Notes under the pieces: model-generated | What the model saw: the letters and a program-made list of their open reading frames with translations, nothing else | Databases searched by the model: none | What the model was told of the DNA's origin: nothing | Source of the DNA: a virus | UHGV virus genome: UHGV-0027489 | Direction: 5' to 3' (one strand) | DNA: 27,684 bases | Shown: one piece after another, positions 1,983 to 26,130 of the stretch | Layout of the letters: every line of letters begins with the position of its first letter | Numbering within the stretch: the first letter of the stretch is position 1 | Made by a program: the position numbers and the translations under genes

Positions 1983-2169
1983 AGTGACCACCGTTTACTG
2001 TGCATAAAAACCCCCTTAGTTGGTGAGTTCATCATACACAATAAACCATATATGGAGTAAATTACCTGATGTCTAGCCACAAAAAACACAAACGCGGCAT
2101 AGAACTGAGTGACTGTGGATGGTTTAGCATTTAAAATGAAATAAATTACGTATAAAACAGGATTGAGTA

Positions 2170-3318
2170 ATGAGTTTTTTCTATGATTTTAGCGTATATC
2201 AGCTTATTGCATTCTTAATTTTTATTTTTTTTGTATTTCTTATTCCTGTGAAATCAGGGATAGTAAACAATTCACAAAACAATATTTTGTGGCTTGAAGG
2301 TCTTAGGGGTGTGGCATGTATTATGGTTTTTTTCAATCATTTTGCTTACTACTTACCTACGATAGGGATAACAAACCAAAACATTCCATATAAAATAATG
2401 CCGATATATGATAATTTTGGCTCATTAGGGGTGGAGATATTTTTCGCAATTACCGGGTTCCTTTTTTTATCAAGAATAAAAAATGTAAAAAGCGCGGATG
2501 ATTTTATGATGAAGAGAATAAAACGACTAGCACCTGCGTTTTTATTTTTTGCATTGATAAACATGGCAGTGTTTATAATATTTATGTCTGATGGAGCTAG
2601 TCTTGATGATTACAGAAAAGCACTTATTCAGCTATTAGCGTTTGGGTTTCTTGGCGGTGGAATTTTCTTCAAAGACTCATGGATACACAGTATTGGCGTG
2701 GTATCATGGACTCTGCCGTATGAATGGATTTTCTATATATCAATTGTAGCTATATCTCTTTTTTATAAAAATGAAAAATATATTTCCATAACACTGTTTA
2801 TTATTGGTATTTATACTATAGAAAAGTCTAATTTAAATACAGATATGTTTTTATTTTTCATTAGTGGTGCGGTTGGTAAAGTTGTTTACGATAATTCACT
2901 AAACCATGATAAAAAATCTTGGAAGTTGATTATATCAATTACAGCAATATTAACATTGCTCACCTGCATTTATCAAAAAGATGACGGATACGGGATTTAT
3001 AGATTTATTTTAGTAACAATATTATTCTCCAGCATTTGCTACATTAAGCCTAAGTTTCTTCAATCCAGCAACATAGTATTGATTGGTATGATTAGCTATA
3101 GCATATACCTTAGCCACCAAGCTATTATATATCTATCTTTATACGTATTTAAAATAATTGGGTTTAACCTATATGAAATAGGAATCCTTTCCTACTTCAT
3201 TATGTCAATAATTACATTTATGATTACTGTGATAATATCACTAATAACCTATAAAAACATTGAGTTGAGATTCAACTCAAAAGTTAATAGTTCGCTACAA
3301 GTCTCGCATACCAAGTAG
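2170..3318 (+). CDS. Integral-membrane acyltransferase (acyltransferase-3/OafA-like), probable O-antigen acetyltransferase for seroconversion
   Basis: 382 aa, about 10 predicted TM helices; N-terminal WLEGLRGVACIMVFFNHF region typical of acyltransferase family 3; visibly AT-rich relative to flanking phage DNA; opposite strand to the late operon; adjacent to the tailspike as in phiV10-like phages (from memory). Confidence 0.75.
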   Translation: MSFFYDFSVYQLIAFLIFIFFVFLIPVKSGIVNNSQNNILWLEGLRGVACIMVFFNHFAYYLPTIGITNQNIPYKIMPIYDNFGSLGVEIFFAITGFLFLSRIKNVKSADDFMMKRIKRLAPAFLFFALINMAVFIIFMSDGASLDDYRKALIQLLAFGFLGGGIFFKDSWIHSIGVVSWTLPYEWIFYISIVAISLFYKNEKYISITLFIIGIYTIEKSNLNTDMFLFFISGAVGKVVYDNSLNHDKKSWKLIISITAILTLLTCIYQKDDGYGIYRFILVTILFSSICYIKPKFLQSSNIVLIGMISYSIYLSHQAIIYLSLYVFKIIGFNLYEIGILSYFIMSIITFMITVIISLITYKNIELRFNSKVNSSLQVSHTK

Positions 3319-5446
3319 CCCCGCCATCAGCAGTTGACATCCGGAACACCTGAGTTCCGGATTCATTTAGTGATGGTGTATTTTTCGCAAGCGTAACAGA
3401 TCCTGTAAAGGTGATCAGTTTTGATGATGCGGAAAACACTGAAAGTGTACATTCAGTATATCCTATTGGCGGGTTACTGAGTGTCGCAACGGATATACTA
3501 ATGTTAGAGTTGCATGTTATTGAAATATAAGAAGACAATGAAAAATCAGCAACATAAGTGCTTCCTGCTGTTTCTGTTTTAATAACATACGAGATAATTG
3601 GAACACCAACTCCTTTTCTGAAAAAAGTCCTGTTAGCATGCATGTCGTCTTCTATGCCAACGAAATTTTTTGTCCCCACAGCATTTGTGAACTCTTGAGC
3701 CACCCCAGAAACATGATTTATACATTTACCAACCCATGCTGGGCTGTTTGAGTTTTCACATAAAGAAAATCCACAATTCGCACTACCTACAAGAAATGGA
3801 TATAACGCCGCAGTATAACTTGAGAGACCGGCAGAATTATAAGCATTCATGTTAACGAACGTTTGACACTGAGAGAATATATTCCCGGTAGCGCCACTAT
3901 CAACGAAGAAACCAATCCCACCATTAATATAACCATCAACAGGAGCTAAATTTGTTTTTGTGTAATCCCATTTTGATGGTGAATCTGCAAAACATTGATT
4001 AAATGAGTTGTTTATAGAATTTTGTACAACAAAGCAACATTTCATTCTTGAGTTTTGGTCGGCCACTGTATCGTCATACATTCCCCAGTTATGTACGTTA
4101 TTAAGCCTGTTATTTCCACCATTCCTAACCCACGTTCCGAATCTGAAATATCTGCCTTCACCCATACTAATATGGTGATCGCTTCCTTCTATGATGTGTG
4201 CCTGACTAAGTGGATTCGTAGGTTTTAATACGCTGATAGCATAGAATTTCATGAGGTGCACACCCATGCCTCCAGCAATATGAATGCCATGACCATCAAC
4301 GTTGGCTACGTAAATGCCATCTAACTTGTTGGCATAACCATCAGATATTTTAAATCCATTAACAGTCTTTGCGCGGGCGTCAATTAAAAGATTGCTAATG
4401 TGCCCAGCGTATTGATTACCTGTTCCTTTATCGCATTTAACAGCATACCCAGAAGAATCTGCTATGAAGTCATCCGTGAGATATACCCCTCCAAATTCTG
4501 CATCTATGCTTACATCACCGTAAACATGTAATGTTGTGTTTATGGGGTATTTCTTTCCATTTAATCTGACAACTTTGCATACAGTATTTGGTTGTATCCA
4601 GTCTGGATGCCCAGCTGCACTACTTGGAGAATGTTCCAGCCCTGTTAAAGATGCTGCATAATCAATCGCCTCCTGCAATGTTGAATACATATCAGGATTG
4701 ACGAATATAACATTTTTTAGCTCACTACCAACCGTACCACCGGCGTAATCAACTGACTTATCGAACCCTGATAATCCCGCTCCAGTAGGCTTTGCCAGCT
4801 CAATTAACACATCGGTGGCGCTACCTGATGGGGGTAGTGTTGCAAATGGCTGACCAGCGCTATCAAAAGCAACAATTTTGTTTGCCCTGGAAATCGCATC
4901 AGGAAGAGATTGAATAGCTTCCGGTGTTCTTAGTGTTTTGTTGAGGTTTGTATCTGCAACGCTATCAACATAATTTTTAGTTGCCGCATCCTGCGGGCGT
5001 GAAGGATCTCGCAGGTTTCTGATGTAGTTATTAAGAGCATCATAATAGTTAGCCACGAACGAAGGCTTTCTGAGGGCCAGACTTAACCAGCTGCGTACCT
5101 GCTGAATCAGCATAGTCAGTTTATCAAAAGCATCCTCATGCACTTCTGCGAAGAACTTACCCTGATTACGGAGATCGGTTTCCTGCGTCACCGGCAACTC
5201 ACGCGAAATGGAAATTTGGTATCCGTTTGCAAGTGCCGACATCAGTATTACATTGCCACCAGAATACCCACCAGCACCCGTAACTGTATAATCAGTATCA
5301 AGAATCAGCTCTGTGATGTTCCCGTTCAGGTCAGACACCTGAACAACCAGGTCTGATTTTCTGAAAATTCGAAAAGTATACGGAAACGATGTCGTAACGC
5401 CGTTACCTGTGTATTCGTTGTGGTCAACTTCGGTTGAGACCGTCAT
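3284..5446 (-). CDS. Tailspike / receptor-binding protein
   Basis: 720-aa ORF, last structural gene before the lysis cassette; G/N/S/T-rich repetitive middle and C-terminal region consistent with a beta-helix depolymerase-type tailspike; GGAG RBS 6 nt upstream of the ATG. Confidence 0.7.
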   Translation of the reverse strand: MTVSTEVDHNEYTGNGVTTSFPYTFRIFRKSDLVVQVSDLNGNITELILDTDYTVTGAGGYSGGNVILMSALANGYQISISRELPVTQETDLRNQGKFFAEVHEDAFDKLTMLIQQVRSWLSLALRKPSFVANYYDALNNYIRNLRDPSRPQDAATKNYVDSVADTNLNKTLRTPEAIQSLPDAISRANKIVAFDSAGQPFATLPPSGSATDVLIELAKPTGAGLSGFDKSVDYAGGTVGSELKNVIFVNPDMYSTLQEAIDYAASLTGLEHSPSSAAGHPDWIQPNTVCKVVRLNGKKYPINTTLHVYGDVSIDAEFGGVYLTDDFIADSSGYAVKCDKGTGNQYAGHISNLLIDARAKTVNGFKISDGYANKLDGIYVANVDGHGIHIAGGMGVHLMKFYAISVLKPTNPLSQAHIIEGSDHHISMGEGRYFRFGTWVRNGGNNRLNNVHNWGMYDDTVADQNSRMKCCFVVQNSINNSFNQCFADSPSKWDYTKTNLAPVDGYINGGIGFFVDSGATGNIFSQCQTFVNMNAYNSAGLSSYTAALYPFLVGSANCGFSLCENSNSPAWVGKCINHVSGVAQEFTNAVGTKNFVGIEDDMHANRTFFRKGVGVPIISYVIKTETAGSTYVADFSLSSYISITCNSNISISVATLSNPPIGYTECTLSVFSASSKLITFTGSVTLAKNTPSLNESGTQVFRMSTADGGATWYARLVANY

Positions 5447-5549: not shown

Positions 5550-5566
5550 ATTACCTTTCAGGTAAT
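5550..5566. promoter_or_regulatory. Operator-like palindrome ATTACCT-TTC-AGGTAAT (copy A)
   Basis: Perfect 7-bp inverted repeat with a 3-bp spacer; a 16-bp identical copy lies at 22521-22536; both sit upstream of plus-strand moron units and ~90-105 bp upstream of minus-strand gene starts. Confidence 0.5.
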
Positions 5567-5602
5567 TTGCAAAACGTGCTGGATAGCAAACAAATTATTT
5601 GC

Positions 5603-5622
5603 TACTGTATAAATATACAGTT
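5603..5622 (+). promoter_or_regulatory. LexA (SOS) box
   Basis: TACTGTATAAATATACAGTT matches the E. coli LexA consensus TACTGTATATATATACAGTA at 18 of 20 positions (CTGT-N8-ACAG with AT-rich spacer); lies 20 bp upstream of ATG 5642 and overlaps a TATAAAT -10-like hexamer. Confidence 0.65.
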
Positions 5623-5641: not shown

Positions 5642-5899
5642 ATGCAGCAGTATCACTATCCACTGGAAGACGGATTTACCGAAAGGATTCACACGCCGGG
5701 AGGCGTCAGGTCACTGGTGGATGGATCGCACTTGATGAAATTACTCCGGGATCTCGATAAAGATGGATTTAATGTCGATGGCCCACTTGCCGAACTGACT
5801 GCACTGATTAACTACGTCACCAGCTCACAGATGTCTATGCAGGATCTGCAAACACATCTAGACTATTGTGCCGAACAATTACGAAAACAAACCACATAA
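5642..5899 (+). CDS. Small SOS-regulated protein of unknown function (85 aa); candidate antirepressor or other SOS-induced moron product
   Basis: ATG 5642 preceded by GGAGAAG RBS at 6-nt spacing; the track's upstream start at 5519 would place the operator elements and LexA box inside the ORF, so I prefer 5642; opposite strand to the structural operon; no family recognised. Confidence 0.5.
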   Translation: MQQYHYPLEDGFTERIHTPGGVRSLVDGSHLMKLLRDLDKDGFNVDGPLAELTALINYVTSSQMSMQDLQTHLDYCAEQLRKQTT

Positions 5900-5921
5900 A
5901 GAAAAGGCCGCGAAAGCGGCC
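5897..5921 (-). terminator. Rho-independent terminator for minus-strand transcripts
   Basis: On the minus strand: GGCCGC-TTTC-GCGGCC stem-loop followed by TTTTCTTTAT; directly downstream of the stop of the 98-aa membrane gene (5931) and overlapping the 3' end of the plus-strand gene. Confidence 0.6.
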
Positions 5922-5922
5922 T

Positions 5923-5934
5923 GTGACATGTCAC
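5923..5934. repeat. Perfect 12-bp palindrome GTGACATGTCAC (copy 1 of 3)
   Basis: Exact 12-mer also at 23510-23521 and 25775-25786; lies between convergent gene ends next to the terminator hairpin. Confidence 0.6.
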
Positions 5935-6227
5935 GTCCCTTTTCTGAATGATAGCCATTCGAAAAATGATGACATTCCACCGCAGACAATAGCAAAGATG
6001 ATCCCACCAAAGAAGAGAAGGCCAGCCTGCCACCACTCCCACCGCCATACATCCACAGCGCCAACCATACCAACAATCGCTCCAACAAATGGAATATAGC
6101 TCACGATGAAAGCAATGGGGGCTGCAATTATCCAGTGCAATCCCCACCATGATTCAAGCCCAGCCATAATTGCTGCCAACTGAAAAAGACCAACGACGAT
6201 ATAAACAATGAATCCTATAGCTTGCAT
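5931..6227 (-). CDS. Small polytopic membrane protein (98 aa), unknown function
   Basis: Very hydrophobic, Trp-rich sequence with 3-4 predicted TM helices; AGGTGA RBS before ATG 6227; last gene before the terminator. Confidence 0.5.
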   Translation of the reverse strand: MQAIGFIVYIVVGLFQLAAIMAGLESWWGLHWIIAAPIAFIVSYIPFVGAIVGMVGAVDVWRWEWWQAGLLFFGGIIFAIVCGGMSSFFEWLSFRKGT

Positions 6228-18538: not shown

Positions 18539-19531
18539 TTACACCACACGGGCTTCTGTTTCCAGAAGCGCATCAGTTTCACGGATTGGTACACCACGGA
18601 ATGAAGTCCACCACTCGCCTTCTGTCTCTTTTACGCTGATCGCCAGAGATGTTTTCTCCAGAGATTGCAGATCAAGAGCCTGGCCTACAGTGCGGTTCAT
18701 GTAGAACACCGGGCGACCCATTCCACGGTTTGGAATGCGATGCAGTGCTTTAACCATCAACTTCGCAATATTTGCGGCAGAGGAAGGTTCTGAAAGATTG
18801 CTGACATCGATGTTTGCAATGCGAACAACATAACGCCAGTCACGCAGAGCAAGTCCGTTGTCCCATTTGTAATGGGTGCGATAGCCTTCGTACTTGCCGC
18901 CATTAGCATCTTCCAGTGTCACCTGGCCTTTATCTTCCATCTGGATGCCAGCCTTCTGCCCTTTCGGGAAGATGCCATGCACGGTGTTTCCGCCCCACAC
19001 CACTAACCAGATTGAGGTGTTATCTGTACCCGTGCCACCAGCATCAATGATGTTCTGAGCATTACCCGCAGACAGGCTGGAATAGCGGGAGGACAGTCCC
19101 ATAAACTGCTGAGGGTTAACGCTGGAATCACCATAAAACAGCGTCTGCGCCATCTGCTGATTCATCGCTTCAATAAATGCGCGGTCTTCAGACAGGCGGA
19201 ATTCAGCGGTATTGCCGTTCAGATCAGCCAGTGACTTATCGACTTCAGCATAGGTTTCCAGCATGCCAACGGAATCGGTTACCTGCACTGTGGTTGATTT
19301 GCTTGGCTGTACGCCATAGTTCAGCAAACGCCAGGTAGCTGAAGGTAAACCAGAACGAATGGTGGTTCGGTGTCCGGTAGGAAGGTTCCCTTCGACAAAA
19401 GGCATATCCTGAAGGATCGGGTTAGTTTGACCGAGAAGCTCGATAATCTTATCGACTTTCCCGTTTGGATCGACGCGCTTACCCCAGTCAGCCAGCGTTA
19501 GCGCAGTTAAGCCTTTAACAGCCATTGTCAT
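18539..19531 (-). CDS. Major capsid protein
   Basis: 330-aa ORF immediately downstream of the acidic scaffold-like gene and followed by a stem-loop; size and position typical of an HK97-fold major capsid protein. Confidence 0.65.
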   Translation of the reverse strand: MTMAVKGLTALTLADWGKRVDPNGKVDKIIELLGQTNPILQDMPFVEGNLPTGHRTTIRSGLPSATWRLLNYGVQPSKSTTVQVTDSVGMLETYAEVDKSLADLNGNTAEFRLSEDRAFIEAMNQQMAQTLFYGDSSVNPQQFMGLSSRYSSLSAGNAQNIIDAGGTGTDNTSIWLVVWGGNTVHGIFPKGQKAGIQMEDKGQVTLEDANGGKYEGYRTHYKWDNGLALRDWRYVVRIANIDVSNLSEPSSAANIAKLMVKALHRIPNRGMGRPVFYMNRTVGQALDLQSLEKTSLAISVKETEGEWWTSFRGVPIRETDALLETEARVV

Positions 19532-20241: not shown

Positions 20242-20534
20242 TCCTGTTCACTGGCCTCTTTGGCCATCTTCAAATACTGTTCAGGGCAATGCGCCATAAC
20301 GCGCTGAAACAGTTCCAGCGCCAGATTGCGTTGCCCCTCATTAAATGCCATTGCCATAGCGTCCATCGGTGAGATAGCGGAAAACACACGGCCTTTCTCC
20401 AGCACCGACCAGACAACGCGACGCCCCTGTTCACTGCTCATGACAAAGCGAATGTCATCAATTTCACGCTGTGCCATGTCACGTTGCTTACGGGCGTTTT
20501 CTTCTTTCAGTTGATCATCTTCGTAATCTGTCAT
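20238..20534 (-). CDS. Small head-assembly-region protein (98 aa), unknown function
   Basis: ORF between portal and scaffold, overlapping both by 4 nt (translational coupling). Confidence 0.4.
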   Translation of the reverse strand: MTDYEDDQLKEENARKQRDMAQREIDDIRFVMSSEQGRRVVWSVLEKGRVFSAISPMDAMAMAFNEGQRNLALELFQRVMAHCPEQYLKMAKEASEQE

Positions 20535-22210
20535 TGTGATTGCCCACCCTGACCACTAACTGCATTCGCCATAGCTGACAAAACACTCGGATCCGAAGTT
20601 TTAGCTTCGCTTAGCGTCTTGGCGCCCTGTGCCGCCGCCATTCCCATCGCCATCATTTGTTGCTGCTGTTGCTGCTGTGCCCGTTGCTGGCGAGCCTGCT
20701 CAACCTGTTCCTGCGGAACAATGACGGTTGGAGACACTCCGGACATATCAGCGAATGCATCGATCGCCTGATCAACGTTGAGTTTGTCGAGAGCTTCTGG
20801 TTTCGCTTGCGCAAGTTGACCAATGAAGTTGACCGTAGACGCCAGACTGGACAGGCCGATAGACTTCTGCGCCTGAGCCATGACGGAAATGTATTCGACC
20901 TTCAGGGGCATGCCTTCCATCGCGTCAGGCGGTGGCGGCAGCATGTTTTTACGCACCATCATCGAGAAAGCGCGGTCAATGAGAGGATTAAGACATTCGT
21001 CGTTCAGACGCTCCAGAACCGGCCCCAACATCAGAAGCTTTTCTTCTTTCATTTCGATCACTGCTTCAACAGGCATCGAGCGGGTATTGATGTTCTGCAA
21101 CATCATGAACAGATCGACAAAGTAGGCGCTGTTAATGATTTGGCGAGTGTCCTGAATGTCTGCTACCAGATCTGCTGTACTGGGGTTAACCAGATAAGCA
21201 GGCCTGAAACCATCCTGACCAGTAATCTGATCGATATACGTGATGTCGCCAGGAAGAAGGGAGGCGCGCTGATTCTTGAGGGAAGTCGGAGCAACCATCG
21301 GCGGATTGGTGGCTTTATCAATCAACTGCGACTTGCGCTTCTGGAGAAGCTGCAATGCCTTAACAGGTCCAAGCGCCAGCATACCCGGGCATGATGATCC
21401 ATAAACATCTTCGCCGTTAACTTCCCAGCGCGGAGCCATAATTGGAAACTCATCGAATCCGGACTCACGCAACAACTTGTCGTTATCGCCACCAACCTCG
21501 TAATAAACCGATTTGAATGGCTTGTTCTTGCTATCCAGCTTCGATGTATCGCGGTCAATGTTCGGGTAAACCGAATGCATCACTTCGATCCACTTCTCGT
21601 AGGTGCCGCTTTCCCACATGCTTTTTACGGATTCGCTGACGTTATTTAGCCCGAACTCCTGAACAAGCTGACGAACAGTCATAGAGAACTTGCGAAAACA
21701 GGTGTCAACACTGCCACGAGGTGAGTTAGCCAGGTAGTAACTGCCTATCGGGAATGGCATTGTGCGAATGATGTCCTCGTCATCCTCCAGCACTGCCATT
21801 GCACCAGTGCTGTATGTGCCGAGGCTTCCGTATAACTGCGGCAGCGACTGATAGAGATTCGACTTATTGAACATATCGTTCATGCGGTTCTGCACCGCCT
21901 CAAGCCACAACTTAACAGGGCCATAATCCATCATTTCAGGATCTGGCGTAGCCAGGCGAAACCACGGACGCGCGGGGCTTGTGATGCCTGACATCATGCC
22001 GCTGGCGAGAGTGCGCGCCGCCATAGTCCCGGTCGAATCAATAATGCGTGTATTGCGTCGATCGTTACGGTTGACCTCAGAAGTCAGAAAGCGGGAACCA
22101 CGCGGGTTGATGTAATCACTCAACTCGCGCCAGTGCGGCTCAAACGACTGACGCTCGCTTTCAAGTTGTGCGAACTGTTTGTTCAATCGCTCTTTAGTTG
22201 TTTCCGCCAT
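20531..22210 (-). CDS. Portal protein
   Basis: 559-aa ORF downstream of the terminase genes and upstream of scaffold/capsid; C-terminal poly-Gln/Ala/Met low-complexity tail; RBS context GGAGTCATTGAAATG. Confidence 0.65.
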   Translation of the reverse strand: MAETTKERLNKQFAQLESERQSFEPHWRELSDYINPRGSRFLTSEVNRNDRRNTRIIDSTGTMAARTLASGMMSGITSPARPWFRLATPDPEMMDYGPVKLWLEAVQNRMNDMFNKSNLYQSLPQLYGSLGTYSTGAMAVLEDDEDIIRTMPFPIGSYYLANSPRGSVDTCFRKFSMTVRQLVQEFGLNNVSESVKSMWESGTYEKWIEVMHSVYPNIDRDTSKLDSKNKPFKSVYYEVGGDNDKLLRESGFDEFPIMAPRWEVNGEDVYGSSCPGMLALGPVKALQLLQKRKSQLIDKATNPPMVAPTSLKNQRASLLPGDITYIDQITGQDGFRPAYLVNPSTADLVADIQDTRQIINSAYFVDLFMMLQNINTRSMPVEAVIEMKEEKLLMLGPVLERLNDECLNPLIDRAFSMMVRKNMLPPPPDAMEGMPLKVEYISVMAQAQKSIGLSSLASTVNFIGQLAQAKPEALDKLNVDQAIDAFADMSGVSPTVIVPQEQVEQARQQRAQQQQQQQMMAMGMAAAQGAKTLSEAKTSDPSVLSAMANAVSGQGGQSQ

Positions 22211-22499: not shown

Positions 22500-22537
22500 T
22501 TGACATTTAACGCACAAATTATTACCTTTCAGGTAAG
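22500..22537 (+). promoter_or_regulatory. Putative promoter (TTGACA -35) overlapping operator-like palindrome ATTACCTTTCAGGTAA (copy B)
   Basis: Consensus -35 hexamer TTGACA at 22500-22505; the 16-bp palindrome at 22521-22536 is identical to 5550-5565 and overlaps where a -10 would lie. Confidence 0.45.
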
Positions 22538-22858
22538 TAAAGGGTTCATTCCGGTTATTAACCTGACTTGCTTGTCGTTAAATTGAACAGGTGGAGTGAG
22601 CTTTTATTTTGAGCAGTACGGCGTATGGCACATGCGCCGATAGCGGTCTGGGTACGTTTAAGGGGCACCCTCCCTTGCTCGGGCAAACGAACCAGGTAGC
22701 CGGAATGTGCAAGTCAAGCGGTTTTATTCCGCGCACGGGGATTCACCATCCCGGCGATTCGGTGTGACGCCTCGGAAGAGACGAGGGTACAACGATGAGA
22801 GCATTTATGGAGCCGCGACAAAGTGTGGCGCCTTAACAGGCTAAGTGCTCTCAGCGTT
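22538..22858 (+). other. ORF-free GC-rich leader upstream of the tRNA (candidate structured RNA / tRNA precursor leader)
   Basis: About 320 nt with no ORF of 60 aa or more on either strand in an otherwise densely coding genome; several local hairpins; contains a 13-codon mini-ORF (22795-22836, MRAFMEPRQSVAP) with a GAGGG RBS. Confidence 0.25.
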
Positions 22859-23133: not shown

Positions 23134-23505
23134 ATGAACGACCAGCAAATCGAAAAAGAAATCGTTGAGAAAGGCAAAACGGCACCGCGCGTTACGCCAG
23201 ACCATATCGAAGGCATTATTGCTCAGGAGGCATATTTCACAGCAGAAGATGGTGCCTTTGGCAAAGCCATAAAAGCGAAACATACTGGCGGAGAGGTAAA
23301 CTACCAGCCGCACGAATCACTTTCTCTGCTGACGTTCTGCGTCCTGGTGCTGCGCAACGGCTTCACCGTCACCGGAGAAAGCGCCTGTGCAAGCCCGGAA
23401 AACTTTGATGCAGAAATTGGTCGGAAGATTGCCCGGCAGAATGCTGTAAACAAAATCTGGATGCTCGAAGGTTACTTGCTGAAGCAGAAGCTAAGCGAGC
23501 AATAA
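23134..23505 (+). CDS. Conserved small phage protein (123 aa), possibly N4 gp49 / Sf6 gp66 family; function unknown
   Basis: AAGGTGAG RBS before the ATG; motif block NGFTVTGESACASPENFDAEIGRKIA...IWMLEGYLL looks domain-like and matches my recollection of the Gp49-like family (unverified); opposite strand to the flanking terminase and portal genes. Confidence 0.5.
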   Translation: MNDQQIEKEIVEKGKTAPRVTPDHIEGIIAQEAYFTAEDGAFGKAIKAKHTGGEVNYQPHESLSLLTFCVLVLRNGFTVTGESACASPENFDAEIGRKIARQNAVNKIWMLEGYLLKQKLSEQ

Positions 23506-23509
23506 CACC

Positions 23510-23521
23510 GTGACATGTCAC
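23510..23521. repeat. Perfect 12-bp palindrome GTGACATGTCAC (copy 2 of 3)
   Basis: Starts 5 nt after the stop of the 123-aa gene, directly before a terminator hairpin; flanks cGTGACATGTCACa identical to copy 3. Confidence 0.6.
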
Positions 23522-23525
23522 AAAC

Positions 23526-23552
23526 AGCCAGCCTATGAGCTGGCTTTGTTTT
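23526..23552 (+). terminator. Intrinsic terminator after the 123-aa gene
   Basis: AGCCAGC-ctatga-GCTGGCT stem-loop followed by TTGTTTTAT. Confidence 0.5.
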
Positions 23553-23595: not shown

Positions 23596-25071
23596 TTAAG
23601 CATAGGGATCGTAATCTGTGATGGCCTTGCCTTGCTGGTTCTGCTGACCGGGAATTCGCAGACGCTTCGACACAGGGAACGCAAACGTCAGCAGTAGCGC
23701 ATCGCCTTTACCAGGAGAACGCCCAAGTCGCTCTTTGATATCTTCCTTCGGTTCGATAACGATTTTACCGTCCACTCGAACTTTGTACTCTGCCGCCGAC
23801 AGGTCGTCTGCAGTTTCCTGGTCATCCAGCATGCCGCCCAGCCTCAGCCATGTCTTACATGAGTTGAACATCTCCCCACGCTTGTTGAGCATCTGCGGGT
23901 CAGTAGACGCGCCACCGAACGGAACAAGTTGCCATGTACGACCCCAGCCGTCACCGATTGACTTCAGACCAGTTCCGTAACCGAAGTCGATGAACACTGC
24001 GTCAGCCTGGTACTGGTCTTCAAAGTCAGCGATACGCTTCGCCATAATCAGATCGTCGGTGGTCTTGTTACCAGTCCATAGCACCTTACTGTGCAGCCCC
24101 TGCCGCAGGTATATCACCGCGTCATCAACGCCTGAGTATGCCGGGTCAACGCCGATTATCACCGGAGCATGTGCAACCTGCACAGCGGTGACCACCCGTT
24201 TCATTGCCTCGTCAGTAAGTCCGGTAGGGATAAACTGCAATTCGGATGCATCCGGGAATATGCCGCGCACACGGATTTTAACGAAGTCGCTGTCTTCCCC
24301 GTAGTCATCAACCCATTTCTGCAACTGCTGTTTGTTAGTGCCTTCCACCGTCCGGCTGTCAATCTGCGCAGTTTTCCAGCGGTGTTTATATTTGCGGAAA
24401 CATTCGCGAAAACGCCCGGTGTTACGTGTAGGGTTTCCGAACGCCACCCAGATAATCTCAGTGTCTTCGTCCGTAAGCGCACCCTCAGCAACTTCCCACA
24501 CCAGATCCGCAATGTTCGACGCTTCATCGAATACCACGATGATGCGTTTGCGCTCGTTGTGTAGTCCGGCGAATGCCTCAGTGTTGTGCTCAGACCAGGG
24601 TATTGCGTCAGCCCGCCACCGCTTGTCGTGCCCAGGGTCATTGCTGTACATCGCAGTAGCGGTACAGGTAAACCAGTCTTTCGTGATAGCAAGGTTCGAC
24701 CACTTGATAATTTCCGGCCAGGTCTTCGTTCGTAGCTGGTTGTCGGTGTTGGCGGTCACCACGATCTTACAATCCTCGCAAGTGGACATGCCCCAGTTGA
24801 TCAGCATTGAGATGAATGCGGATTTACCAATACCGTGACCAGAAGCGCGTGCCAGCATAAGCGGCTGATAGCGCGTCTCTGGATTCTGCAGGTGATCACG
24901 TATCTCTCGGAACGCATCAGCCTGCCACTGACGTGGGCCGGTAGCATGTGCCAGTTCAGTCCCCTCTTCCCCCCACGGGAACGCATAGAGGGCATAGCCA
25001 AGCGGATCGTGAGTGAACCCTGCAATATCCTCGATCAACTGCTCTTCAGGAGATAACGCTGTATCTGTCAC
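23596..25071 (-). CDS. Terminase large subunit
   Basis: 491 aa; Walker A-like ASGHGIGKS near the N-terminal ATPase region, acidic nuclease-like C-terminal half; start overlaps the stop of the small-terminase gene by 4 nt; followed by the portal after the moron insert. Confidence 0.8.
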   Translation of the reverse strand: MTDTALSPEEQLIEDIAGFTHDPLGYALYAFPWGEEGTELAHATGPRQWQADAFREIRDHLQNPETRYQPLMLARASGHGIGKSAFISMLINWGMSTCEDCKIVVTANTDNQLRTKTWPEIIKWSNLAITKDWFTCTATAMYSNDPGHDKRWRADAIPWSEHNTEAFAGLHNERKRIIVVFDEASNIADLVWEVAEGALTDEDTEIIWVAFGNPTRNTGRFRECFRKYKHRWKTAQIDSRTVEGTNKQQLQKWVDDYGEDSDFVKIRVRGIFPDASELQFIPTGLTDEAMKRVVTAVQVAHAPVIIGVDPAYSGVDDAVIYLRQGLHSKVLWTGNKTTDDLIMAKRIADFEDQYQADAVFIDFGYGTGLKSIGDGWGRTWQLVPFGGASTDPQMLNKRGEMFNSCKTWLRLGGMLDDQETADDLSAAEYKVRVDGKIVIEPKEDIKERLGRSPGKGDALLLTFAFPVSKRLRIPGQQNQQGKAITDYDPYA

Positions 25072-25664
25072 TGATTACCATCCTGACGTTCTTTGAGTCG
25101 CTTCCTGGCTGCCGCTATGCGATCAGCAATTGTCACATTCACATTAACATCCAGGCGTTCTTTGAATGCGTTGACGTCGACGTGCTTACCAATCAGTTCG
25201 AGGTTCTTCACCTTGTCAGGCCATTTAATTTTTTTGAGGATTGTCTCTATCGAATCCTCGTTCATGTTCATGATGGTCGATGACAGATCAAAGCCACTAA
25301 GCGTAGTGCGCCAGATTTTCGGCCACTCGCGGATTGGCTTAAGGCTCCCATCGTCGTTGAGGATATCAATCACGTCCATCTGGTCGATCTCCACCAGGCG
25401 CATGAGAACGTAATCGGCACTGACGCGCATTCGTTTGTTGCGCTCCTCCATCAACTCGGCAATCCGTTTTTGAATGCGTTCATCGCGCATCATGACACTG
25501 GCTTTAACTGCCGCTGTATTTGGGGAGAATCCTGCGTTAATCGCTGCCTGAGTCTGGTTTTCAGGCGTTTTGATGTATGACTGGCAATAAGCCTCCTGCA
25601 TTGCTGTTAGTGGCTTAAATTGCGTTGATTTGCGTTTATAGGTTTTAGGTTCAGCAGGCATCAT
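25068..25664 (-). CDS. Terminase small subunit
   Basis: Immediately upstream of and overlapping terL; basic helix-rich protein. Start set at ATG-ATG (25664) with GGTGG RBS; the track's longer ORF uses a TTG at 25742, which would add a Thr/Val-rich low-complexity extension. Confidence 0.6.
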   Translation of the reverse strand: MMPAEPKTYKRKSTQFKPLTAMQEAYCQSYIKTPENQTQAAINAGFSPNTAAVKASVMMRDERIQKRIAELMEERNKRMRVSADYVLMRLVEIDQMDVIDILNDDGSLKPIREWPKIWRTTLSGFDLSSTIMNMNEDSIETILKKIKWPDKVKNLELIGKHVDVNAFKERLDVNVNVTIADRIAAARKRLKERQDGNQ

Positions 25665-25774
25665 AACCACCGTGGTAATAGTTACCGTTGTGGTAATAGT
25701 ACCATGCAAAATAAAGCCGCCATAGTTGGCGGCAGTATTCAAAACCCATCAAATTCATCATGCATAATCTACTC

Positions 25775-25786
25775 GTGACATGTCAC
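25775..25786. repeat. Perfect 12-bp palindrome GTGACATGTCAC (copy 3 of 3)
   Basis: At the early/late junction: overlaps the stop codon of the Cys-rich gene and lies 30-110 bp upstream of the small-terminase start. Confidence 0.6.
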
Positions 25787-26130
25787 ACTATTAATTTCGT
25801 TTCATGCCAGCCTTTAGTCACCCAGCATTGCGAGTCACCATTACACGGGCATGAATTAACGGGAACTCTCTCGCCGCACTTACCGCAAAGTTTTCTGCTG
25901 ATCGATTTTATACGCCCGCGCACACGTGCATCATCCTGGCGGATCAGCAGCGCGATGTACTCGGCCATTTCATAGGGATCGCGACCAGGGCGCCGGGCGG
26001 CGCAGTTCCGCGCCAGCATTTCCTGCTCCTGCTTATCCAGCACCAGTTCAATTTTGCGCTCACCGGCGGCGGACTGCCGAGCGCGCTGCGCGGCTTTGCG
26101 TTCTGCGGGGGATTTAGCCACGAATCGCAC
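25783..26130 (-). CDS. Basic Cys-rich small protein (zinc-finger-like C-terminus); candidate transcriptional regulator
   Basis: C-terminal C-x2-C-x8-C-x-C (CGKCGERVPVNSCPC); basic N-terminal region; last early-region gene before the terminase. The 115-aa ORF starts at GTG; internal ATGs would give 78 or 61 aa. Confidence 0.4.
   Translation of the reverse strand: MRFVAKSPAERKAAQRARQSAAGERKIELVLDKQEQEMLARNCAARRPGRDPYEMAEYIALLIRQDDARVRGRIKSISRKLCGKCGERVPVNSCPCNGDSQCWVTKGWHETKLIV

Follow-up and report, generated by a model that had tools for sequence, protein, structure and literature searches.

Why does one perfect 12-bp palindrome, GTGACATGTCAC, lie three times at the ends of genes in a short stretch of prophage DNA, and what reads it? 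We analysed a stretch of 27,684 nucleotides (the window) from an E. coli prophage of the epsilon15/phiV10 type (Uetakevirus), in which the late and virion genes lie on the minus strand. A word search of the window recovered the three exact copies of the original prediction, at 25775–25786, 23510–23521 and 5923–5934 (copies A, B and C), together with the extended identity claimed for two of them (cGTGACATGTCACa at 23510 and 25775; the copy at 5923 reads tGTGACATGTCACg). Chance had been judged a very unlikely origin, and this judgement stood: base composition gives an expectation of 0.0016 exact copies in 27,684 nt, and among 200 Markov-1 simulations no 12-bp palindrome reached three copies and exact GTGACATGTCAC appeared in none. 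The word is the sole perfect 12-bp palindrome with more than one copy in the window, and no canonical 13-bp matS site (GTGAC-N3-GTCAC) is present there. A one-mismatch copy (GTGCCATGTCAC, 20471–20482) lies within a coding sequence and is probably outside the system; phiV10-type relatives have it too, again within coding sequence (GTGACATGGCAC at phiV10 5306, which is GTGCCATGTCAC read on the opposite strand), and no counterpart with at most one mismatch was found in epsilon15, or at that position in SPN1S. A second 12-mer, GAGCGATCGCCA, which contains the palindrome CGATCG, also occurs three times (987, 7978 and 17392, one as reverse complement), with all copies apparently within coding regions.

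Copies of the palindrome at unit ends

As had been predicted, each of the three copies either lies between genes or overlaps a stop codon. On the minus strand, copy A (25775–25786) reads G-TGA-CATGTCAC and provides the stop codon of a gene for a predicted ribbon-helix-helix (RHH), Cys-rich protein. It is located between this last early-right gene and the first late gene downstream, terS (25068–25664, minus strand), approximately 110 nt upstream of the latter. Read in the late sense, the palindrome is followed by an intrinsic terminator (25716–25733, minus strand; hairpin GCCGCCAACTATGGCGGC then TTTATTTT) 41 nt further on, a repressor-operator-like sequence at 25682 and terS; the epsilon15 counterpart of the terminator is annotated at 39646–39672. 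The true start of terS is likely to be the ATG at 25661 or 25664, as in epsilon15. This start has a GGTGG ribosome-binding site, whereas a TTG start at 25742, as in the phiV10 annotation, would put the strong terminator within terS.

Copy B (23510–23521) lies 4 nt past the TAA of an opposite-strand moron (23134–23505, plus strand; Pfam Phage_gp49_66), the 3′ end of which runs TAA-CACC-palindrome and then, after 4 nt, into the moron's own terminator (23526–23552, plus strand; AGCCAGCCTATGAGCTGGCT then TTGTTTT). This terminator lacks a T tract in the late sense and shows compensatory stem changes among relatives. The stop codon of terL (23596–25071, minus strand) is 74 nt away, with the copy on its downstream side. 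Copy C (5923–5934) overlaps the TGA of a small late-sense open reading frame (ORF) that ends within it (5931–6227, minus strand; phrog_3075), in a slot that is variable among relatives, and abuts the late-operon terminator that follows directly (5905–5922, minus strand; AGGCCGCTTTCGCGGCCT then TTTCTTT), which is kept in epsilon15, phiV10 and SPN1S with differing loops. On the far side of this terminator, an antirepressor-like plus-strand ORF (~5643–5899, phrog_450) converges on the late-operon end at copy C, and a perfect LexA box (CTGTATAAATATACAG, 5605–5620) is located just upstream of this ORF.

From these placements it follows that each copy closes one transcription unit: copy A closes the early-right operon, copy B the terS–terL unit or the moron, and copy C the operon that runs from the portal gene (20531–22210, minus strand) to the injection-protein genes. 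The tailspike gene (3284–5446, minus strand) lies past copy C, and the lysis genes are at the left end of the window. A stretch of low GC content at 2001–4000 (0.31–0.36, versus ~0.51 elsewhere) takes in a plus-strand ORF of 382 amino acids (2170–3318) and the distal portion of the tailspike gene; it resembles cargo for serotype conversion or receptor binding that was gained recently.

Conservation and placement of the site

The same exact 12-mer is found at the same three syntenic positions in epsilon15 (2142, 19517 and 39612), phiV10 and SPN1S, the overall DNA identity of which to the window is ~80%; the counterparts of copy C are at epsilon15 19517, phiV10 19493 and SPN1S 19662. Counting the motif across close-relative genomes and loci (L003–L085) gave 140 exact copies with flanks that diverge at the motif edges, confirming that it is conserved in relatives, and hundreds of metagenomic relatives likewise retain the motif while the flanks vary up to its edges. 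Among 80 IMG/VR loci with close homologues of the ORF at 25783–26121, the 12-mer lies on the homologue's stop codon in 77, with a second copy after terL in most. The flanks are mosaic: downstream of copy A the sequence is of at least four kinds, and copy B has more than ten unrelated morons as neighbours, its composite (hairpin, 4 nt, palindrome) being kept beside many different ones. That the 12-mer persists amid such flanks indicates that purifying selection acts on the word itself.

Not every copy is needed. Copy B is lacking in ~25% of close relatives, and both hairpin and palindrome are gone where a different, AT-rich cargo follows terL; in the related E. coli KC-Dl-1 prophage, copy A is the single copy in a 32-kb span that takes in guaA next to the prophage and all of the early region, and copy B is absent. 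Copy B is therefore dispensable, and the expectation of conservation at the junctions, borne out for all three copies in epsilon15, phiV10 and SPN1S, fails for copy B in about a quarter of close relatives. In the Salmonella phages SPN1S and epsilon15, the lysis operon ends with the gene for the Rz spanin, and a degenerate fourth copy overlaps its TGA (GTGACATGTCAT, L005 26722, and GTGACATGGCAT, L003 26618, respectively); the corresponding place in the window (~160–175) holds nothing comparable. The phiV10 record is linearised inside the palindrome (L004 39101–39104 joined to position 1), and the joined ends read GTGACATGTTAC, with one mismatch that may be an end-of-record sequencing or joining artefact. 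A role as a genome end was rejected, as this start of the GenBank record is the authors' linearisation point after the last gene.

Comparison across lineages generalizes the word to GTGAC-N2-GTCAC, with constant arms and spacing and a variable centre: AT in most phages, GC in one group and a P2-like Yersinia phage, and TG in N15 and N15-like loci. Placement was evaluated on 287 distinct contexts of the motif, with random positions from these loci as the control. An ORF of at least 60 codons ends no more than 12 nt upstream in 82% of the motif contexts (12% at random positions), and the order ORF stop, palindrome, terminator within 50 nt is found in 33% (0.3% at random); a terminator in the reverse order, rare at random positions, was seen in 0 of the 287. 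The distance between palindrome and terminator is fixed at copies B and C (0–4 nt) and variable at copy A (10–41 nt). This composite is also found in other late operons, for example where a tail gene similar to lambda gpM stops, ahead of gpL, and between the head protease and capsid genes, where a moron lies between two copies in some phages and the slot is empty with one copy in others. In one group of relatives (L065, L068, L080, L099–L105 and others), a strong promoter (TTGACT...TATACT) lies 6 nt past copy A on the regulator's stop; overlapped by a perfect LexA box, the promoter drives another downstream module.

By itself, the palindrome is no intrinsic terminator (RNA hairpin of −1.2 kcal/mol, z −0.03). 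Of the suggested role as part of a terminator or antiterminator, what remains is that the site very often lies just upstream of a terminator.

The companion gene and known systems

The gene that ends on copy A (25783–26121, minus strand) encodes a protein of 112 amino acids from a GTG at 26121 (the listed ORF starts at 26130), and is the last gene of the early-right operon, directly upstream of the packaging genes. Homologues include epsilon15 gp49, phiV10 p55 and N15 gp46, which belong to a family (phrog_536) labelled "transcriptional regulator". Structure prediction suggests an N-terminal basic helix, an RHH domain and a Cys-rich C-terminal region, and the family alignment displays a basic RKxxQRxR helix, a strand-helix-helix core and a CxxCG...P...C...GDxxCW tail in which C78 and C81 are the only two invariant cysteines and C98 is almost invariant. 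The modelled core has the strand-helix-helix fold of RHH (Arc/MetJ/CopG) proteins, and the best structural match of the model, a weak one, is MatP. The product matched no Pfam or NCBIfam family, no Pfam RHH family reached threshold, and a BFVD structure search returned only a fragment of the protein's own family.

Gene and site occur together well beyond the close relatives. Distant homologues (41–60% identity) still have the site at the stop codon and, across all loci collected, GTGAC-N2-GTCAC lies on, or at most 10 nt after, the stop in 234 of 269 family ORFs (87%). At one locus (L090) the site is 5 nt past a TAA stop; hence, the stop codon alone does not explain the conservation. N15 carries three identical copies of its version—on the stop of gene 46, upstream of the antirepressor operon and inside repA—two of which adjoin neither a stop codon nor a terminator, and the coupling holds in 49 of 49 N15-like loci. 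It is also found in the P2-like Yersinia phage, and so extends over podo-, sipho- (N15) and P2-like virion types. Vibrio phage K308, which encodes an RHH homologue, has three sites with the N2 spacing in 36 kb, one of them 19 nt upstream of terS; at 19491 (L176) it also has a canonical 13-bp matS-type site, GTGACACCGTCAC, overlapping the stop codon of its gene 0027. Gene and site are present in 661 of 5,426 complete E. coli genomes, annotated as "hypothetical protein", and the protein family was found only in phages of Enterobacterales, Vibrio and Aeromonas. A gene-blind 14-mer scan of IMG/VR retrieved 119 stretches, with the gene family within a few kilobases in 46.

One group counts against the link to the protein. 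In lambda-like tail operons (L225 5756–5769 and some ten IMG/VR loci like it) a gpM-like gene has the palindrome on its stop, ahead of an intrinsic terminator and then a gpL-like gene, and the gene for the RHH protein was not found with the motif; these contigs had no match in phage, E. coli or plasmid collections. The class of the predicted β-strand, by comparison, follows the centre of the site: xRKIELVLD occurs with AT (106 distinct proteins), TTRRDWVLE with TG (21) and LTELRxxLE with GC (5). Such a match would be expected if contacts to the centre came from the RHH ribbon and those to the arms from a conserved element; the covariation spans only about three lineages, so shared descent could also explain it.

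The arms recall a host system. The consensus of matS is GTGAC[AG]N[TC]GTCAC, with GTGACATTGTCAC as the E. coli consensus (PMC3603311; PMC8669397), and its binding protein MatP has an RHH DNA-binding and dimerisation domain (PMC12756933). The half-sites of the phage motif are those of matS, which the earlier comparison with half of a CRP or LacI-type operator had overlooked: the GTGAC and GTCAC arms are identical, the phage word equals GTGACATTGTCAC minus one central base and, in both cases, a few sites are scattered over the replicon rather than clustered in one promoter. In contrast to the 13-bp GTGAC-RNY-GTCAC pattern, the phage sites span 12 bp, two of them central, and their dyad axis falls between base pairs; searches with a 13-bp pattern would miss them. 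They lie at gene 3′ ends beside terminators, one on the protein's own stop, unlike matS, and the phage protein of 112 amino acids is predicted to have one N-terminal helix instead of the four-helix bundle of MatP and a Cys-rich C-terminal region instead of its coiled coil. No sequence homology to MatP was detected (hhalign of the family profile against a single E. coli MatP sequence, probability 0.2%; no Pfam hit). Given this and the different architecture, the phage pair is, by the tests run, not a member of MatP/matS despite its matS-like arms.

Other systems resemble the phage pair in part. The phage and plasmid RHH regulators (P22 Arc, Mnt, CopG, omega and RHH antitoxins) are likewise small and dimeric with short palindromic or repeated operators, and the antirepressor region where P22 Arc and Mnt act lies amid late genes, which is similar to the position of copy C beside the LexA-controlled ant gene. 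These regulators bind promoters, usually their own, whereas the best-conserved site here is at a gene 3′ end beside terminators, and they have no additional Cys-rich C-terminal region. The lambdoid Q antiterminators share with the phage protein a position as the last early gene upstream of the late genes, a terminator before the first late gene, and a Cys-rich, DNA-binding (here predicted) product, but there is no similarity of sequence or fold, and N15 has a separate Q-like gene besides gp46. No Q-type late promoter with an embedded binding element or pause signal is conserved at the site across lineages, although a downstream terminator is present. The family profile matches the DksA/TraR-type proteins TraR and YbiI weakly over the helix and CxxC-G-x-P region (E ~0.05–0.1, not significant); unlike in their CxxC-N17-CxxC zinc finger, the second CxxC is not conserved, and the fold lends no support; homology to TraR/DksA is kept as a weak lead. 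The CRP operator is TGTGA-N6-TCACA, and operators of the LacI family span 14–16 bp with a central CG. The phage site fits neither, with GTGA and TCAC 4 bp apart (versus 6 bp between CRP half-sites) and AT at the centre, and the mismatch of spacing and centre had been correctly recognized.

Competing readings and biological meaning

We consider it somewhat probable that the 12-mer is a conserved cis-acting protein-binding site, GTGAC-N2-GTCAC, which modulates read-through at unit boundaries, with a dimer of the phage's own RHH protein (25783–26121, minus strand) as the most likely ligand. A protein-binding DNA site is by far the best fit to the symmetric arms, variable centre, constant spacing, negligible RNA structure and lack of a conserved promoter. 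That the ligand is the phage RHH protein we propose with moderate confidence, on the basis of co-occurrence and predicted fold. The regulator site is the best supported of the three functions originally offered (regulator site, terminator part or recombination site), and the Cys-rich protein named there (25783–26130) remains the best candidate binder in view of the coupling in 234 of 269 family ORFs, N15 and the P2-like phage.

By analogy with known RHH proteins, the paired β-strands would read the central base pairs and the basic N-terminal helix (RKxxQRxR) the invariant GTGAC arms. As the site overlaps the gene's stop codon, gene and site form a compact module, which sits at the end of the early-right operon; further copies mark other units at their 3′ ends, immediately ahead of intrinsic terminators. 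Occupancy of a site would modulate the behaviour of RNA polymerase at the adjacent boundary; it could strengthen insulation and termination or, once enough of the protein is present, let polymerase read on into terS and the tailspike region. The polar position upstream of terminators suggests control of read-through, and the place of the gene, last among the early genes and ahead of those for packaging, would fit a role in timing.

A recombination or cassette-boundary site for moron exchange, either site-specific or acting through short homology by a phage RecT system, is an improbable alternative for which part of the original suggestion was nevertheless confirmed, in that mosaic joints coincide with the palindrome. 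Alignments of relatives lose similarity precisely at one or both edges of the motif, many unrelated morons share a TAA-CRCC-palindrome-terminator 3′ end, and a deletion joint just after the terL stop of one locus (L080) falls mid-palindrome (GTGACAT joined to the next terminator). The morons of two loci lie between two copies (L111, 11501 and 12115; L121, 11517 and 11975), and a third locus (L106) has an empty slot with one copy and a terminator; the two palindromes of L121 differ in their centres (AT and CA). However, a conserved island between variable flanks always resembles a breakpoint, so most of this pattern is expected for any conserved functional site. No recombinase was found linked to the palindrome, and the linked protein (112 amino acids) lacks a catalytic domain. 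Compared with known site-specific systems a 12-bp site is short (sites of the integron attC type are longer, structured and served by a dedicated recombinase), exchange between the three copies would delete essential genes, and constant arms with lineage-specific centres are better explained by dimer recognition. With no linked recombinase, dedicated recombination is a rival and not our main reading.

We also regard as doubtful that the pair is a miniature MatP/matS-type system of temperate phages of enterobacteria, vibrios and aeromonads, sharing ancestry with host MatP/matS, in which a minimal RHH protein would recognise a few matS-like sites that, being one central base pair shorter, would be orthogonal to host MatP and serve as boundary or bridging elements on phage DNA. 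If this were true, the system might be a DNA-site-dependent switch of intrinsic termination that times late genes, or might interfere with MukBEF or MatP.

Binding by a host protein is rather less probable still. MatP would be the most obvious candidate, because the sites equal matS minus one central base, with the phage engaging or evading MatP, MukBEF or ZapB. Enterobacterales, Vibrio and Aeromonas, to the phages of which the protein family is confined, are taxa that have MatP, and the half-sites are identical to those of matS; the 13-bp site on a stop codon of K308 also points in this direction. However, the spacing is always 2 and never 3 over hundreds of sites, which moves and rotates the half-sites relative to matS, and a host factor explains neither the linkage to a phage gene nor the covariation of centre and protein. 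In addition, a relative, ZX5, is reported to integrate at the 3′ end of guaA and the KC-Dl-1 prophage lies directly beside this gene, which is outside the Ter region. Finally, canonical matS has been reported to be absent from 500 prophages, which was read as counter-selection (PMC3603311).

An RNA element, that is, a 3′-UTR signal that aids transcript termination, processing or stability, is very unlikely. The site does nearly always lie 0–12 nt past an ORF stop, often just 5′ of a terminator hairpin, but its own hairpin is no better than that of shuffled sequence (z ~0), which led us to reject it as an RNA hairpin, and a 5-bp stem with a 2-nt loop is sterically implausible. Furthermore, the centre changes regardless of loop stability, perfect two-fold symmetry is kept on both strands, and some sites are in promoter-like or coding contexts (N15). 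A −35 element (GTGACA) of late or antisense promoters is the least probable reading and was rejected: in a consensus scan, the hexamer at 25786 (minus strand) and that at 5923 (plus strand) each have a weak −10 partner at a spacing of 18 nt, but the two hits are in opposite senses, shuffled sequence yields no fewer, other lineages do not keep the −10 candidates, and a terminator immediately follows copy A. An operator of the prophage repressor was rejected as the epsilon15 repressor sites are annotated as a different motif, ATTACC-N5-GGTAAT, and a pac or cos site is unlikely given three dispersed copies and, in the cos phage N15, copies that are far from cos. Three sequences of the ATTACC-N5-GGTAA(T/G/C) type, which match this epsilon15 motif, occur in the window at 5551–5567, 22522–22538 and 25682–25698, so that every late unit has one upstream (the tailspike gene, gp3/portal and terS, respectively).

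A full-text literature search for the 12-mer returned no mention, the motif is unmarked in the annotated epsilon15 and phiV10 records, and the ZX5 paper describes the repressor, antirepressor and integrase only. We therefore regard the RHH protein and its palindromic site as an apparently undescribed pair that is unusual for its matS-like arms, the copy on the gene's own stop codon and the coupling to terminators. No late-gene switch is annotated in the epsilon15-like phage records examined, and the position of the module is precisely the one in which a switch of this kind would be looked for. It is common and lacks annotation: besides E. coli genomes, it occurs in N15-like phage-plasmids, P2-like phages and Vibrio phages. 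The motif is a concrete, searchable marker for moron slots in phage genomes. With its matS arms at a shifted spacing, the site offers a handle on how RHH proteins set half-site spacing, on whether phages interact with or avoid MatP, and on whether a DNA-bound factor just upstream of an intrinsic terminator can tune termination.
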